Shown: positions 32,041 through 61,454 of the stretch, piece after piece
How positions within the stretch are numbered: position 1 is the first letter of the stretch
Layout of the letters: every line of letters starts with the position of its first letter
Assembly: GCA_951406725.2 (NCBI GenBank)
Contig: OX597837.1
Location: forward strand, 992,001 to 1,056,000
Length of the DNA: 64,000 nt
Direction: 5' to 3'
Origin: Octopus vulgaris
Taxonomy: Eukaryota
The notes under the pieces: generated by a model
Told to the model about the DNA's origin: nothing
What the model saw: only the letters and a program-made list of their open reading frames with translations
The model's database searches: none
Position numbers and translations under genes: made by a program

Positions 32041-32858
32041 ATGTATATTATGGCATATCTTTCTCGCCTACGCTCCAAGGAATAGAGTTTTAATCTCTTG
32101 AGTCTTTCCCAGTATCTTATATGCTGCACAGAGGCTATCTTCTTCGCGTAGCTTCGTTGGATCGCCTCAAGTTCTGTGATTAACTTGACACTTGTTCTCT
32201 TTAGAACAAGAGAACAAGAAACCATGATGGTCCTCTGGAGGACACTTGTCCTAAGACACCTTGACTATTGCTCTCAGCTATGGTCATCATCCAGTGTCAA
32301 GTTGATCACAGAACTTGAGGCGATCGAACGAAGCTACACAAAGAAGATAGCCTCTGTGCAGCATATAAGATACTGGGAAAGACTCAAGAGATTAAAACTC
32401 TATTCCTTGGAGCGTAGGCGAGAAAGATATGCCATAATATACATCTGGAAGATCCTGGAAGGAATTGTCCCAAACTTTGGCATCAAGAGTTACACAAATG
32501 CCAGAACTGGGCGCCACTGCGTGGTGCCAAGGACTCCAAATTTGCCATCAAGATGTAGGACAAGATACTGTGATAGCCTGGGCTTCAGAGGCCCACAGCT
32601 CTTCAATATCCTCCCGAAGAACCTGAGGGACCTGCATGGGGATGTCTTTAAAGTAGGACTGGATCTCTACCTGTCAGGTGTCCAGGATGAACCAACTTCA
32701 CGGCAGGAGGTGCAGATGAGGGCAGCTGCATCAAACTCTCTTATGCACCAAATGGCAGTTGCTAAAAAGCATTCGTGAGGTAAAGTCATGTAGCAACACC
32801 AAATGGCGGTGCCCCAGCATGGCCACAACTCAAGAGCTGAAACTGGAAAACAAAACAA

Positions 32859-37959: not shown

Positions 37960-38197
37960 ATATCTATATGTGTATGTACATATCTTTACGTTATACATAC
38001 ATAATATATATATATATATATATGTATAATTTATGAGCTATACTTGCCATCTCAATATGGCTAACCACTAAGGGTAGGTGTTACTGTAGCTTGTAGCCCC
38101 AGGAGAACATCCTCTTCAGCTGGCTTTAGGCACACTTTCTGTGCCCTTATGGTATTTGCAAAGGGAGGTCACCCTTCCTCGTCAACCTAAGTGATAC

Positions 38198-38240
38198 GCA
38201 CGGACTGCAGTTTCTAGGTTTTGACCTGTCCTCAGCGTAC
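38198..38240 (-). ncRNA. Type I hammerhead ribozyme motif
   Basis: The reverse strand reads gtacg-CTGAGGA-c-aggt(caaa)acct-a-GAAA-ctgcag-TC-cgtgc, with a GUC cleavage triplet and palindromic ACTGCAGT helix III. Confidence 0.8.
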
Positions 38241-38352
38241 GACAATATTATTGCTTGCAGACAGTTTTTCGAAATCAGTGACGATAAGTTACTGGGAAAA
38301 GCGATATAAGAATTTGCATTGGGTCTCCCTTCATCGAAAACCGGTGATTGTC

Positions 38353-38395
38353 GTACGCCGAGGACAGGTCAAAACCTAGAAACTGCAGTCCGTGC
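38353..38395 (+). ncRNA. Type I hammerhead ribozyme motif, U4C core variant
   Basis: gtacg-CCGAGGA-c-aggt(caaa)acct-a-GAAA-ctgcag-TC-cgtgc. Confidence 0.7.
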
Positions 38396-38948
38396 GTATC
38401 ATTTAGGTTGACGAGGAAGGGTGACCTCCCTTTGCAAATACCATAAGGGCACAGAAAGTGTGCCTAAAGCCAGCTGGAGACGATGATCTCTTAGGGCTAA
38501 AAGCTACAGTAACACCCACACTTAGTGGTTAGCTATATTGAGATGGCAAGTATACCTCACATTGTCGTGCAGTTAGTGGTTATATCTCGTTCAGAGATTT
38601 ATTATGTATAATTTGTTATATTGAAAATAGTACTCCTCTTCCCACGCGAAAAAGTGGTATGAACGAGTCACTATAAAGTTAGACAGTCAGTTGTTGTAGG
38701 AGGTCTGTAGTAGTAGTAGAGTCGCTGTACGAGTTCTCAGAATCAGTGTCAGTTATGTGGTATACACAAGTTCGAGTTACTGTCAAGGTAGACGTTTCAA
38801 AGTCATTGTCGTTCGGAGCTATCAACGATTGCACGATAGGCGACTCGAAGATACTAAGACGTGGAATACCGTCACAACACATTAGTGGCACCAAGAATAT
38901 TACAGTGCGCACAACAGCATACAGATGGACGACGATCCACATTACAAC

Positions 38949-41361: not shown

Positions 41362-42054
41362 CTAAGAGCCTCCTCTAATATGTGGCACTTGGTGAAGAAT
41401 GGTGTTTGATATAGCTACCCTCATTTGCACCTCTTTCCGTGAGGCAGGTTCATCTGGGACTCTTGACAGGAAGATGTCCAGCTTTGATTTAATAACCGCT
41501 ACATCTATTTTGTGCAAGTTCCTTAGACTCTTTGGGAGAATATTAAAAAGCTGTGGGCCCTTGAAACCCAGGCTGTTGCAGTAGCTGGTCCTGAAGCGTG
41601 ATGGCATTGCTGGGATCTTTGGCACTATGCAGTGTCGCCCCTTTCTAGCATTGGTGTAGCTTACAATGCCAACATTTGGCACAATTCCTTCCAGGATCTT
41701 CCAGATATATATTACTGCATACCTCTCCCGTCTTCTCTCCAGAGAGTAGAGTCTTAGCTGTTTCAATCTTTCCCAGTAGCTGAGCTGTTGCAAAGATACG
41801 ATCTTCTTTGTGAATCTTCTCTGGATTGCTTCAAGGTCCGCTGTTAATTTCACACTGGCGGGTGACCATAGCTGTGAGCAGTAATCCAGGCGGCTGAGGA
41901 CGAATGTCCGCCAGAGGACCATCATGGTTTCCTTATCTCTGGTTCTGAATGTTCTTAGGATCCATCCAGCCAGTCGTCTGCACTTTGTCGCCATCCTGGT
42001 AATGTGCACTTGGAAAGAGGTATCATCACTCATATCGATACCCAGGTCCCTCAC
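41362..42054 (-). pseudogene. LINE ORF2 C-terminal segment
   Basis: RDLGI, RLDYCSQLWSP, LEAIQRRFTK and YWERLKQLRLYSLERRRERY. A frameshift separates it from the RT segment. Confidence 0.9.
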
Positions 42055-42058
42055 AGAC

Positions 42059-43375
42059 TTAGGCTCTATGAAATTCCCTGTGGACCGGTGTACCTGTAAG
42101 TTTAATATTCAGGTTTGGATGCTGGTAGCGCAGGGCCTGGAATTTTTCAGCATTAAACTGCATATTATTATCCTCAGCCCATCTGTAGATTGAGTCCAAC
42201 TCCTGCTGCAGGTGTGCAACATCGCTGGGGTTCTGTATTTTCTGCGAGACTTTCGTATCGTCTGCATAGCTTGCCAGAGTGGCTATCCGGGCATTTGAGG
42301 GCATATCTGAGAGGGCCACTATAAAAACCAGTTGTCCCAATACAGTGCCCTGTGGAACACCGCTCACTATTTGTGTGTTCATAGTGGTGGCTCCATTAAC
42401 CACTACTGCCTGACTCCTATCTTTCAGGAAGTCATGTAACCACACTCCAAGTTCTCCAGCTATGCCGAGGTCACGCAGTTTGTGGCATATCATACCATGA
42501 TCCACCTTGTCAAAAGCTTTTGCAAAATCAAGGTAGATTACGTCCACATTTGATTTGTTGAGTAACTGCCTCAACACCCAGTCATAATGTTGTAAGAGCT
42601 GGGTCAGGCAGCTCCTACCTGGTCGAAAACCATGCTGGGTAACACTCAGCAAGTTATTTTCCTCAAGGAATGCGATTAGTTTCTTTCTGACTATCCGTTC
42701 CATGACTTTGCTGATGTGTGAAGTCAGAGAGATAGGCCTATAGTTTTTGGCATCTGCTCTACTTCCCCCTTTATGTATTGGGCATATTATCCCCTCCTTC
42801 AGCTTGCTTGGCAGTTTGCCATTTGTAAGAAAGCTCTGGAAGAGAATCGTGAGGGGTTTTGCCAGGGCATGCTTGCACGCTTTGAGGAGGATTGCTGGGA
42901 AACCATCAGGGCCAGCAGTTGAGTTTGTGTCCACTTCATCTATGGCTAGTAGGACATCTTCTTCGCTAATGTCAATATATTCTATTGTAACTGCCTCGCT
43001 GGTTATAGGTGAGGCGGCAAAGAAGTCCACTGGTTCGTTCACTTGTCTGTGTTCCAACAGGGTGGTAAAGACACTTTTGAACTGGTCATTCAGTATCTCA
43101 CTGATCTTAGTTGGACTGCCTGTGAGAGAGCCATCCTTTTGGAGGAGGGGTCCTATCTTGTAGTGTGCTGAGACTGTTTCTTTCGCGTAATGAAAGAAGG
43201 CCTTTGGGTTTGATTTAATATCTTTTATAACCCAGGCTTCTTTGTCTGCTTTCTCCCTCACATAGGATTGTTGCAGCCTTTTTTCGATCTCCATCAGTGT
43301 TGCTTTTAGGCGGGACGTTTCGCTACTTTTGGAATGTTGGTTGAGTCGATTTGCAACCTTCGTCCGTCGTCTCAT
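42059..43375 (-). pseudogene. LINE ORF2 reverse transcriptase segment
   Basis: Non-LTR RT motifs AGPDGF, NYRPISLTS, QHGFRPGRSC, YLDFAKAFDKVDH, GVPQGTVLG and YADDTK. Confidence 0.95.
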
Positions 43376-43516
43376 GAGGATCTTCCTGTCTCTTAGAATC
43401 TTGCTCCTATTTGTTTTGGCCTTGTGCTATAGGACATATTTCTGGCATACGGCTTGCACAGAAGACATGAAACATTCTAGTTTCATGTCAATGTCTGGTG
43501 TGGAGAGACATTCCGG

Positions 43517-44454
43517 TCAGTCCTCTCTGAGAATCTCTTTTTGGATCGATTTCCAATCTGCTTTGTGGAAGTTCAGATTGGAGAGATTTCGGGTGCTTCC
43601 TTTAGGCTGTATGTCTCTGGTTACTTTTGGCCCAAACATAGACAGCTCTATTATGTTGTGATCCGAGACTAATGTCGGTGTCACTTTCACATCATGAATG
43701 ATGTCCATATTGTTCGTGAAGCAGAGATCCAGAATGTTATTCGCCCTAGTTGGTTTGTGTACAATTGCTCCATGAATAAGGCATTAATGAGGTTGAGCAG
43801 GGACTCCACCTGTACTTGCTTGCAATGATTCATTCCTGAGAGTATGAGACCTTCGGGCCATTTGACGTTGGGGAAGTTGAAATCACCCATAAGAAATATG
43901 GTCACGTGGTGTTCCAGATTCATGAGGATTTCTTTAATTCTTGTGAGGCAATCTTCAAACTTGCCTATGTGATTTGGAGCATCCGGTGGGCAATATGTAT
44001 TGCATATGACTATATTATGTTGTCTTATGTATACAATTGAGGTTTCACATACCGAATTTGAGTATGTCATTAAGACCTGGGGTGTGAGGTCATCTCGGAT
44101 GTATACAGCAACTCCACTATGGCTCCTTTCCCTTCTGTCTGTTCGCAGTATGGCATAGTTTGGTACGTGTACTTCTGCGTCCTCTATATCAGGGCTGAGG
44201 TGAGTTTCCATGAGTTCTATACATAGGGCTTGATTGCATGCAGTAAGATCTCTCAGGAAAGAAATTTTGTTTCTATTTTGATGCAACAGACCCCCAATAT
44301 TTAGTAAAAGTATTGGGGTGACGGCTGTGCAGGCGTTAGGGGAGGCCATCCCGTGTCTGTTGACTGGTGGTCTTGCATAGTGGTGGGCAGGGTTCCTTCT
44401 CTGTGCCTGGTGCAGCCATATTAGCTGCTGGACAATCCTTTGCGCCATGCACAA
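43517..44454 (-). pseudogene. LINE ORF2 APE endonuclease segment (frameshifted)
   Basis: LNIGGL, ETHL, LRTDR..RSHSGVAVYI and GDFNFP in 43687-44454, with SDHNII in another frame (43517-43708). Confidence 0.9.
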
Positions 44455-46426
44455 AAAAGACTCTTGCTCAACTGCTGCGTTGCGCAGAACATCTTAGGAG
44501 CACACTTCTTTTCTGAATGTTTTCCTGGAAGACATTTCTTGTCTTCCCTCAGTAAAGCTTTCCTCTTTGAGTCCCCTGAAGTTCTGGCGGGGTGTCGGAT
44601 GGGCGAACCAGCAGTTTTTGCCGTCCTCCCCATGCCAACATTTGCCCCGCGTGTAGAATTTACAGGTTCTTCGGTGCCTTCCAGATTTCTTCTGTTTTTC
44701 TAGTTCTCATTTCTTTGTGGGACCACTGGTACAGTGTGTGGGGGGGGACTTCCAGTTTCTGCTCCCTTGGCTCCCTTATCCTTCACTGCCTTGTCGTTCA
44801 CCAGGGTAGGTGATCCATTTTCTTAATGTACATATATATATAATGTATATCAATATCTATAAATCTGAAATGCGAAAAGTGTGTTTATCTGGTTTTGGCA
44901 TTGGAACGGGTTAAAGGACACTAGATCCCGTCGGATTCGCTCCAGAATTTACAGAGACATGTAAAATGAGGTGAGAATGTGAGTGGGCTAGGTTAGAAAT
45001 CCGTATCTCAAACGCTGTTTTTACTCGGACAAAAACCCTACACTTTGACAAGTTTTTCTCGCTTCTCTTATTTTTTTTATCTGCCTGTCTTCCTCCTCTC
45101 TCTCTCTTTCTCTCTTTCCTCCCTTTCCTTTAATTTCTCTCTATAACGACGTTTGACAGTGTCTACTATCGTTTCCCCGCCGCCTTCGCCAGCGCTGTGA
45201 CTCTTTCTCCTACATCTTCTCTCTTTCTCTACGTCTGTCTGCATTCATTGAGAGAATTATTATCGCCACCACAATCACACAATCATGAGAACAAATATTA
45301 TGAATCAGATATTTATTGGTTTAATTTATATATCTGTGTGTGTGTTCTATATATAAATAGGTATATAAATGTATATATACAAAGTGTATATATATATCTA
45401 TTTTTATATATATATATATATATATATAATTTGTATACATTTTTATATATAATGCGTACACGCACACACATATATAATGCGTATATATGTACATATATAC
45501 ATATATATTTAATGCGTATATATATATATATATATATATATGTGGTCGGTTGAGTTGAAAATATGCACACCTATGTTAAAAGTGCTGGCGAGTTTGCATG
45601 GCAACTATTTTTTTCCTCAAATGAAAGGCGTGACCGCTAGGACAAAATTCCTCATCTTATAAAATGTAGTCCGAGTAGTCCCGAATGAAATCGGGTTATA
45701 TTAACCAAAATGTGAAAAGGGGTCGAAATGGAGCTGGAAGGGGATTAAAATTTATAGGAGCGGGTGTTTAGGTATTTTCTTTTACATCAAGTTCAAAATT
45801 TCGCGCCAGCCGTTAAACTGCCACTACGTTGCTGTCCGCCGTTAAGAAATGCCAGCCATGGTGACTATCCTCAGATTCTATCCCTTCAAACTTTGGTTTC
45901 CAATATTTTAAAATTTTTTATTCAGCTCGCAAGTTAGTCAGTCCCTTTTAAATGTTAGTGTTTTGCTGTCTGCCTTGAAGCAGATCCTTCCGTTGTCACT
46001 GCCTGATATTTATGATTGATCTTTCAAAATATTTCTTTCTCAACCTACTCAAGAACTTTTGTTGTTTATAAATGGAAGAGAGGTAGATAGAGAAAGATAG
46101 AGAGTAAGAGAAAGCGAAGGAGAGTCCGAGAGAAAGGAGAGAGAGGGGGGGAATGAGAAAGCGAATGAAGTCGACGAAGACTTAAACATCTCCCTATCTG
46201 TCCATGCACATATAAAACAATGAAAGATAAAAAACTATATATAATATATACATACATACATACACACACGCATATATATATATATATATATACATAGACA
46301 CATACATACACACACACATCTCTCTCACTCTCTCTGTATGTACAGAGCGCATGAGAGAGAGAGTATAATGAAAATATTTTTAAAGACTCTCTCTCTCTAT
46401 ATATATACATACATACATATACATAC

Positions 46427-60063: not shown

Positions 60064-60259
60064 CATAAAGATGTGGAGCCTTCTGCTGTAAATGTCAGAT
60101 GAGGTGGGTTCCATAGTTTCTTGAACACCCTGATCAAGTGTTATGTGCCGTTCATTAAGCTCACTGCCTCCATCAAATCAACGTTGCCTGTTTAGCTGCC
60201 AGGTGTGCCATGCGTCAGATGTCCAAGTGATCGCAGACACGAATGGGGGAAAAATTTTT

Positions 60260-60350
60260 GCTCACGAACTCAGCACACGCCCGCTCTCGGAGTCGAAACC
60301 ATGCCCTTGCGATCGTGAGTACAACATTGTAACCACTAGACCACGCACCT
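60260..60350 (-). mobile_element. tRNA-SINE head
   Basis: ttgctcacgaactcagc...gagtcgaaacc...gatcgtgag...taaccactagaccacgcacc (A and B boxes on the minus strand). Confidence 0.65.
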
Positions 60351-60554
60351 ACACACACACCTACACACACACCTACACACACACACACATACACACACAC
60401 ACACGTATTTATTTGTGGGATCATTTCGGTTTGAACGGCAGTTTTTTAAAATAATTTCCACGTAACTAAACACTCTTAAACTTTGTATACTGGTAGAATA
60501 ACTTTAGAAAACATCTTTTTCTCTTGGCTTTATTGAGAAAATTAAATTCTATAA

Positions 60555-60850
60555 TATAAGCGGGACCAGCCATCTGAATGTGGCTAGGGACAGGGCGGGG
60601 TGGTGGTGGTGTTACTGATGCATTTAGCCCCAGGCGACTATAGACGTCACCAGGAGAGCCGACACCATCACGGTGTCCTTGCTAGCCTGTAAAGGGAGAT
60701 CAGCCTCCCCGAAGATACGGATGCTACACACGGACCGGTTTCGAGGTGGTCGCCTCTCGTCAGCGCATGGCAAGCACCGTTCTTCGTTGAGGGACTTCCT
60801 CTACAGGCTAGAAATATATAGATTTTCACTGTAAACACAGTCACTGGCGT
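60555..60850 (-). mobile_element. GC-rich Penelope-like/retrozyme-like insertion, homologous to the 38034-38559 arms
   Basis: Shares gccatct.aat.tggcta, ggtgttactg, tagccccagg, aaagggag.tca and the hammerhead in the same order with similar spacing. Confidence 0.75.
60727..60769 (-). ncRNA. Canonical type I hammerhead ribozyme motif
   Basis: The reverse strand reads catgcg-CTGACGA-gagg(cgacca)cctc-GAAA-ccgg-TC-cgtgtg. All core nucleotides are present, with a G10.1-C11.1 pair, GUC triplet and palindromic ACCGGT helix III. Confidence 0.88.
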
Positions 60851-61454
60851 CGTAAGATATTTGTTGTTTTTTTCTTCAATTTCTGCAATTTCAACCTATC
60901 AATGACGTCTATTGAGGTGAAAACATTCTGTGCCGTATGAAAATGTCCCTCGTTTAAGAAACAGATTGGGTTTATTTACATTTCTGAAGAAAAAAAGATA
61001 CCCATCCCCCACCCCTAGCCCTAACCCTAACTCTAACCATAAAATAGATTGAAATGCAATAGATCGATACTAGGGTCATAATTATGGGTGACAATTTCAT
61101 ATGACACCGCTAGAAAAAACTGCCGTTCAAACCGAAAAGATCCTATATTTGTATATACATATACAAGTGAATATATTCTCACAGCTCTCTCTCTCCCTCT
61201 CCCTCCTCTCTCGTTTTACGATTCTGATAACAGAAAAATGTTTTCCTTTTTTTTTCAAAGAAAACGAGGTCACAAAAAAAGATAAAAATCAAAACTCGTG
61301 GTTGAGAAGGGAAGAAAGTTAAACGAAAACATTTAACCATGTCAAGAATTCTTGTGTTCTTTCTGGTTTTTCTGTAGAAGTCTCATCAGTAACCACCAGA
61401 AACAATGACTTTGGCTCAAAGACAAATACTTTTTTTGGCTGCCATTGTGTCTCA

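Follow-up and report, generated by a model that had tools for sequence, protein, structure and literature searches.

A hammerhead retrozyme family of Octopus vulgaris with a predicted long-range helix around a putative Penelope-type start site

A non-coding hammerhead repeat, present at two loci in a 64-kb stretch of Octopus vulgaris DNA (the window: positions 992001-1056000, from a 2.8-Gb genome in 227 contigs), is very probably a metazoan non-LTR retrozyme mobilised by a Penelope-like element (PLE). The retrozyme class is itself already known, since the unit is non-coding and fits the non-LTR retrozymes as described in PMC7229834, and the family considered here is a young, structured member of it. 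What the present analysis adds is a predicted long-range helix, P-x, which covaries across 13 diverged subfamilies and surrounds the short one of two putative start sites of reverse transcription. The best explanation of the whole, to which a probability of about 0.6 is assigned, is that the retrozyme is copied into AT-rich DNA by a PLE reverse transcriptase (RT)-endonuclease acting in trans, and that the 3′ domain of its RNA binds the enzyme and places two starts. A literature search, with Repbase, Dfam and supplements outside its scope, turned up neither a description of this family nor any work linking a covarying retrozyme structure to PLE start sites.

Size and composition of the family

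A sequence query with the window copy at 60 kb returned at least 118 matches, mostly 95-100% identical, from 40 of 1237 candidates scored, spaced 359-360 bp apart with a strand switch from minus to plus arms; the corresponding query with the subfamily B copy gave at least 71 matches from 40 of 2914 candidates. Exact patterns for three groups returned 6,958 (control 3), 731 and 1,376 (controls 0) matches and, since these groups are disjoint and their counts sum to that figure, the genome holds at least 9,000 units. A further exact pattern gave 6,011 matches overlapping the group of 6,958, and an 18-mer from the window's own subfamily gave 150. Near-identical words of the repeat were also recorded under four organism labels, in sequencing-run contigs that show neither ends, strand nor level, and one family pattern had 0 matches in metagenome and viral contigs.

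Thirteen subfamilies were resolved, and the 12 compared were 50-92% identical; A4 and B3 are known from single copies, B2 from two and G from decayed copies, and the partial subfamilies F, J and C2 (L199, L202, L376, L369-L386) were left out of the counts. Units of 355-360 nt formed head-to-tail arrays of up to 9 units per arm, and the longest Met-started frame in trimers of A, A3 and B was 50-60 aa. The window contained no match to PLE protein within its 64 kb, and the unit, being non-coding, lacks the RT plus GIY-YIG open reading frame of an autonomous PLE. Other hammerhead-like motifs, with a long helix II, were seen at L064, L065 and L072/L082 and apparently belong to separate repeat families.

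The two loci in the window

The features of both loci are collected in Table 1. The 60-kb copy is a 5′-truncated unit of a non-coding hammerhead repeat 355-360 bp long, and is probably a dead product, since the tail and a second hammerhead are missing. Its minimum free energy (MFE) fold over 60560-60815 placed the hammerhead at the tip of the rod (z -5.19; 0/200 shuffles as good), the core pattern alone being weak evidence (2 matches against 0.45 expected; 4/100 shuffles reach 2); the hammerhead, rod and three hairpins that the initial annotation had reported were all located where it had placed them.

Table 1. Retrozyme features at the two loci, in window coordinates
Feature	Position	Strand	Remarks
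Subfamily A unit, 5′-truncated, single arm	60548..60855	minus	Ends at short site, without tail; 96.8% to positions 1-308 of tandem unit
Rod (extended helix I)	60682..60811	minus	46 predicted pairs; basal helix 60811-60798 with 60696-60682
Predicted canonical type I hammerhead	60727..60769	minus	Core 60763-60757, GAAA at 60742; helix II 4 bp; 6-nt palindromic helix III; predicted cleavage 3′ of C60733
Hairpin P-a	60661..60677	minus	
Hairpin P-b	60626..60660	minus	Conserved internal loop; its 3′ strand is the first "conserved block" of the initial annotation
5′ strand of long-range helix P-x	60611..60618	minus	The second "conserved block"; tail partner missing from this copy
Hairpin P-e	60566..60587	minus	
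Short end, putative reverse-transcription start site	60548..60558	minus	Joined to AT-rich DNA; basis includes the ends of other copies
Subfamily B full unit	38253..38605	plus	Ends at long site; 93.8% to tandem B unit; rod ~38312-38439
Penelope-type tail	38560..38605	plus	Contains terminal hairpin and P-x 3′ strand at 38572-38579 (two substitutions in this copy; partner strand 38506-38513)
Inverted 5′-truncated subfamily B arm	38034..38246	minus	Intact core 38235-38229; predicted cleavage 3′ of 38203; ends at short site

Homology between the 60-kb and 38-kb copies extends over 293 nt (65% identity, E 2e-7), and the copy at 38300-38559 folded like its 60-kb counterpart (z -2.80; 2/200 shuffles as good). 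The homologue with an equivalent rod that had been proposed at 38034-38559 was thus recovered, but as two head-to-head arms rather than one copy, the plus arm extending 46 nt past the proposed end and into the tail. As to the hammerhead claimed there, the core is intact in the minus arm, whereas that of the plus arm (38358-38364) carries U4C.

The window is rich in simple repeats and contains LINE fragments. A 30-bp inverted repeat (29/30) at 60418-60447 and 61114-61143 brackets the 60-kb copy, which seems to be nested in a small DNA-transposon-like element, and a tRNA-like SINE with A- and B-box-like motifs lies immediately 3′ of it (~60220-60345, minus). Elsewhere in the window, a broken LINE with endonuclease- and RT-like frames (41362-44493, minus) and a second RT 3′ fragment (32152-32778, plus) were recognised by eye.

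Hammerhead and rod

A core, helices I and II and a palindromic helix III were found in 12/12 subfamily sequences parsed. Helix I was paired at 5/5 positions in 10/12 subfamilies, two (A3 and H) had a U4C core, and the position 3-8 pair was C3-G8 in 7, U3-A8 in 3 and U3-G8 in 2 of the 12. Helix III was a perfect palindrome in 10/12, with seven different sequences; by computation, closing into a hairpin is impossible for its 6-nt palindromes and, for the 8-nt ones as monomers, unfavourable, whereas duplexes of the latter are stable. In the dimer model described in PMC4209133, a palindromic helix III pairs between two hammerheads. The compensatory core changes and the retained palindromes suggest that the hammerhead is under selection, cleavage itself being predicted.

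Helix II measured 3-4 bp and loop II 6-7 nt and, because helix II is so short, the predicted hammerhead is classed with the canonical metazoan type and not with the PLE minimal type. The link drawn in the initial annotation to the minimal type I hammerheads of PLEs accordingly holds for type I and for the dimer-type palindromic helix III, but not for a motif in which helix II is short and helix I is a long rod. None of the Rfam hammerhead models matched the units in the window or at seven loci.

The rod comprised 40-54 predicted pairs in the various subfamilies (z -2.0 to -8.5). In sequence-only alignments of six disjoint subfamily pairs, 22/274 rod pairs had changed on both sides yet remained paired, against 8.5 expected (0/2000 shuffles), and 17 against 7.1 expected when the test was reversed; 43 pairs were broken in the same test. 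Rod mismatches were far more often G-U (17) than A-C (4), and the sense strand was the more stable in 11/12 subfamilies, findings which together point to selection on the RNA strand; the same excess of G-U over A-C disfavours DNA-level palindromy as the cause of the rod. Covariation, originally suggested from the two window copies, was established for the rod across the wider family, from which the signal derives, but the two copies alone gave no significant result (3 double changes against 1.5 expected; 344/2000 shuffles).

Insertion footprint and the nature of the template

Insertions were selected by motif from a single contig and mapped against references for A, A3 and B; of the 64 examined, 31 were two-armed and head to head, and 28 of these had one short and one long end. 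Copies ended at one of two fixed sites ~45 nt apart, the interval between them being the Penelope-type tail, and the flanks, judged by eye with no background count, were mostly (TA)n or AT-rich DNA. A tail, an inverted 5′-truncated copy and partial tandems are described as PLE marks in PMC8557442, and in the Anolis element of PMC11167929 the tail corresponds to the stretch that separates a pair of internal RT start sites. With its short and long ends, inverted truncated copies, partial tandems and AT-rich targets, the insertion pattern matches that of a non-autonomous derivative of an EN+ PLE; the arrays, tail, inverted arms and two fixed ends thus support the initial proposal of a hammerhead retroelement family tied to PLEs.

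Both arms and all units of one insertion shared variants. Divergence within and between insertions was 1.38% and 3.86%, respectively, for 12 A-type loci, and 0.45% and 3.11% for 11 A3 loci, some misaligned truncated arms inflating both the within and the between figures. Truncation points were concentrated 40-49 nt 3′ of the cleavage site, which is the rod base, where 22/188 units stopped (neighbouring bins 10 and 5), a distribution that fits either stalling of the RT at a real rod or joining through rod complementarity. At the cleavage site itself there was no significant pile-up (11/188 against 6.5 expected); arrays read through this site, and the template was therefore uncut or religated. 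The arms of L124 and L118 consist of short repeats restricted to the unit's 3′ part (in L124 the last 96 nt, seven times), which suggests repeated re-priming or slippage.

A circular template is considered probable, and the variant patterns of the arrays, which had a period of 3 in L169, a period of 2 in L348 and were mixed in others, fit circles. The alternative that the template consists of linear uncleaved multimers, arrays growing by DNA-level duplication or template jumps with the hammerhead incidental, is possible though doubtful; it touches only the proposed step of cutting and circularisation, and is compatible with a role of the 3′ domain in RT recognition. Several observations lend it weight: unprocessed RNA is described as the dominant substrate for the Anolis PLE (PMC11167929), variant patterns were mixed in several arrays (L168, L170, L171), and the seven L124 repeats lack the hammerhead. 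However, the 12 units of L167 had zero substitutions among them, though insertions differ by ~3%, the period-3 and period-2 patterns fit multimeric circles, and the hammerhead core and palindrome have been kept by compensatory change.

The 3′ module and helix P-x

RNAalifold, applied to nine real copies of non-A subfamilies, recovered P-a, P-b and P-e, with double changes in 13 cells against 4.3 (0/500), in a test whose structure came from the same alignment and whose shuffle ignores kinship. A stricter contrast test of the local hairpins was mixed (158, 5 and 48 of 2000 in three contrast sets); the hairpins are present, but their covariation is weaker than had been implied by the initial annotation. 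In the internal loop of P-b, a C-G pair, a U-U mismatch and a bulged G were kept in 11/12 subfamilies. The two blocks described earlier as conserved proved to be helix strands and are not invariant, being altered in subfamilies C, D, E, G, H and I; the first forms the 3′ side of P-b, and in E and G it and its partner have changed together.

The second block forms with the tail the 8-bp long-range helix P-x, both strands of which differ in C, D, H and I. When the best 8-bp register was taken in each of the 13 subfamilies, 8/8 pairs were found in 8 and 7/8 in the other 5, and the summed score of 192 compared with at most 139 in 500 tail shuffles. Cognate strands outscored permuted ones (9 of 100,000; rank 16 of 40,320 for eight deep lineages), and the nine real copies showed 5 double changes against 1.3 (0/500), p-values which are optimistic because the helix was spotted by eye before testing. 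The cognate tail was the best partner in only 5/13 rows, and the worst for G; P-x appeared in the MFE of 8/12 folds, being absent from the A, A3, A4 and B units, and its pair probability in A, A3 and B was at most 0.02.

P-e and the short end both lie within P-x, the short end being ~8-10 nt 5′ of the helix's 3′ strand; this strand begins 25 nt after P-e in 11/13 subfamilies, and a small hairpin immediately precedes the long end. Since the P-x 3′ strand lies beyond the short end, short-ended units such as the 60-kb window copy cannot form the helix. The earlier suggestion that the module serves in RT recognition gains support from this pairing into the tail around the short end, and the chances are about even that the 3′ domain is an RT-recognition and start-positioning element, to which the enzyme is predicted to bind.

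A further and distinctly more tentative reading is that the 3′ domain is a minimal form of the Penelope RT template-selection element. In telomerase RNA the template is enclosed by a helix. According to PMC8557442 the RTs of PLEs and those of telomerase are sister groups, and on the template-selection reading the 3′ domain would therefore be a natural, alignable counterpart of that layout: P-x might close a multibranch loop and present the short start site at a fixed distance, the terminal hairpin might set the long one, and a protein dimer might prime both target strands from one RNA type.

A different role for the same element and mobiliser would be one in which the 3′ helices only make a compact, stable circle and keep the hammerhead folding, the RT reading a short tail sequence. 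The whole unit is indeed structured, since a hairpin of differing sequence is predicted in the ~55 nt of linker that follow the long end in A2/A3, B, C, D and E as well; the circular fold of the unit had z of -4.2 to -5.5, retrozyme circles are described as highly self-paired (PMC7229834), and the tail is the part most conserved in sequence between A and B, its last 38 nt being 35/38 identical. Packing alone would need neither the fixed distance of P-x to P-e and the short end, seen in 11/13 subfamilies, nor the retention of the non-paired motif in the P-b loop in 11/12, and this account is held to be rather unlikely.

Conservation of the module as DNA, in the form of an internal promoter, is very unlikely. 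It is true that the pLTRs of PLEs contain the promoter as described in PMC8557442, that dispersed arrays need some promoter, and that the module showed no strand bias in folding (7/12 subfamilies); against this, the blocks change between subfamilies along with their pairing partners, a T run of at least 5 was present within ~20 nt after the long end in three subfamilies, and no Pol III B box had a common position across the 13 subfamilies with one mismatch allowed, which leaves the promoter proposal of the initial annotation unsupported and is at odds with a tRNA-derived SINE. That the module is a second ribozyme which self-cleaves or ligates, as was also suggested, is most improbable: it has a conserved internal loop and a multibranch layout, but few invariant unpaired positions, and no Rfam family, known classes only being covered, matched within the units (gathering level in the window; E up to 1-10 at seven loci), the only hits lying in flanking simple repeats, all below gathering. 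By-eye comparison of the module with twister, HDV-like, pistol, hatchet and 5S layouts found nothing consistent.

Candidate autonomous partners

Intact young PLE families are present in the genome. Among the best-scored candidates (150 of 6136 in one search), neither the module nor the tail turned up in an autonomous PLE, whether next to the 36 GIY-YIG loci inspected or within the five PLE families compared, and in these five families the unit had no 3′ or pLTR homology to an autonomous PLE. In the 781-aa, P0001, C-rich and 1312-aa families the 3′ ends and hammerheads are distinct and show no homology to the unit, and these families were set aside as partners of that kind; unit matches beside open reading frames in L084, L090 and L094 were separate insertions.

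Among 311 distinct sampled insertions, 149 of them single-armed, two independent ones joined subfamily A directly to PLE coding sequence. The first, present as three duplicated copies on C28, consists of two A units with a short end, head to head with a 2.2-kb arm of the young 1312-aa PLE, which has its own long end; the junction has a 4-nt microhomology, and the rule that an insertion has one end of each type is obeyed by the two RNAs together. In the second, a truncated C-rich PLE continues into an A unit in the same sense. The PLE family differs between the two chimeras, and each may alternatively be an insertion accompanied by deletion of neighbouring DNA. L178, with two long-type ends and a spacer, was not counted as a third chimera. 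In the 1312-aa family the short end is likewise bracketed by an 8-bp complement; since its predicted probability was 0.13, both strands were unchanged in an older relative, and one strand is coding, it was not counted.

Three of the PLE families merit description. A very young PLE with a 1310-1312-aa frame, a C-terminal GIY-YIG domain and a hammerhead variant (L305-L310, e.g. G000:C5:115839000-115848500) has two ends ~57 nt apart, inside the start of its open reading frame, and retrozyme arms were seen right at the 3′ end of 1312-aa-type copies, with an AT tract in common (L376, L292). Upstream of the 781-aa RT-EN PLE (L081, L082, L088) lies another open frame, of 330-380 aa; the element has a 456-bp pLTR and a U3-A8 hammerhead, and in its tail, too, a small hairpin comes just before the long end. 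The C-rich family (L256-L284) is very abundant, with 19,193 first-look candidates, and has a CT-rich 3′ UTR.

Proposed mechanism

The favoured explanation, copying in trans by a PLE enzyme, can be set out in five steps. Tandem arrays would initially be transcribed as multimers. Two adjacent hammerheads would then pair their palindromic helices III and cut, the rod holding the new ends for ligation into circles, by analogy with the mussel, coral and axolotl retrozymes, for which self-cleavage and circles are reported as demonstrated (PMC7229834). Thirdly, the enzyme would nick each of the two target strands in AT-rich DNA, one cDNA being primed at the long site and one at the short; the two fixed ends are observed, and the enzymology follows that described in PMC11167929. 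Fourthly, the cDNAs would pass the hammerhead site into earlier units, stop variably, with the entrance to the rod as the commonest stopping point, and become joined head to head, a course proposed from the observed pattern of arms and truncations. Finally, selection on the copied RNA would keep the fold as its sequence drifts, as the observed covariation suggests. Counting against this course are the U4C cores of A3 and H, the description of cleavage as not required for insertion (PMC11167929), and the reported failure of 8/9 Xenopus retrozyme dimers to cleave.

Relation to known systems and significance

The closest described elements are the 350-390-bp non-LTR retrozymes of Mytilus (Cervera & de la Pena 2020, PMC7229834), which likewise have a canonical type I hammerhead in tandem non-coding units, occur beside autonomous PLEs, and have a highly self-paired predicted circle. 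Their description gives MFE folds and names PLEs as only a strong candidate mobiliser, whereas the octopus repeat offers comparative structure over 13 subfamilies, a PLE tail, inverted arms and two fixed ends; conversely, cleavage and circles are demonstrated there and predicted for the octopus repeat. A study of vertebrate retrozymes (Li, Clavereau, Pollet 2026, 10.64898/2026.07.22.740005) likewise concludes that retrozymes use PLE machinery, and favours local array growth by unequal crossover. Its link, as presented, is co-occurrence and pLTR homology (24/57 Xenopus families), while that for the octopus repeat is the insertion footprint, with no pLTR homologue found in the five PLE families compared.

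With the EN+ PLEs and non-autonomous Chlamys elements described in PMC8557442 (Craig et al. 2021), the octopus repeat shares 5′ truncation, partial tandems, an inverted 5′ copy, a tail at one end, (TA)n targets and multicopy head-to-tail non-autonomous forms; it differs in having no open reading frame, no 3′ similarity to an autonomous family among those compared, and a tail of ~45 rather than 30-40 nt. In the Anolis Poseidon element PAc (Frangieh et al. 2024, PMC11167929), the tail is bounded, as is proposed here, by a pair of internal RT start sites that lie 3′ of the hammerhead, and a protein-binding region is inferred 3′ of the hammerhead; that region is the start of the open reading frame, whereas its octopus counterpart has no coding sequence and carries a covarying helix that surrounds the short site. 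The minimal PLE hammerheads of PMC4209133 (Cervera & de la Pena 2014) have type I topology, a palindromic helix III, the dimer model and the U3-A8 variant in common with the octopus repeat, but their helices II and I are given as 7-8 and 4-5 bp, against 3-4 bp and a rod of 40-54 pairs. The 781-aa PLE of the same genome has a short-helix-I hammerhead, unlike that of the retrozyme.

How a PLE RT chooses its RNA, and why there are two internal start sites, is the question addressed by the covarying helix around the short site, the PLE binding motif having been located, as described in PMC11167929, only to a 172-nt region. The machinery that moves animal retrozymes has so far been argued from co-occurrence and phylogeny. 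Should the module serve only in packing, the repeat would be an ordinary new retrozyme family; should the template-selection reading be true, the chimera with the young 1312-aa PLE would name the enzyme. With a 360-nt non-coding RNA, 13 diverged versions of it and candidate enzymes in the same genome, both questions could be tested by a few point mutants.
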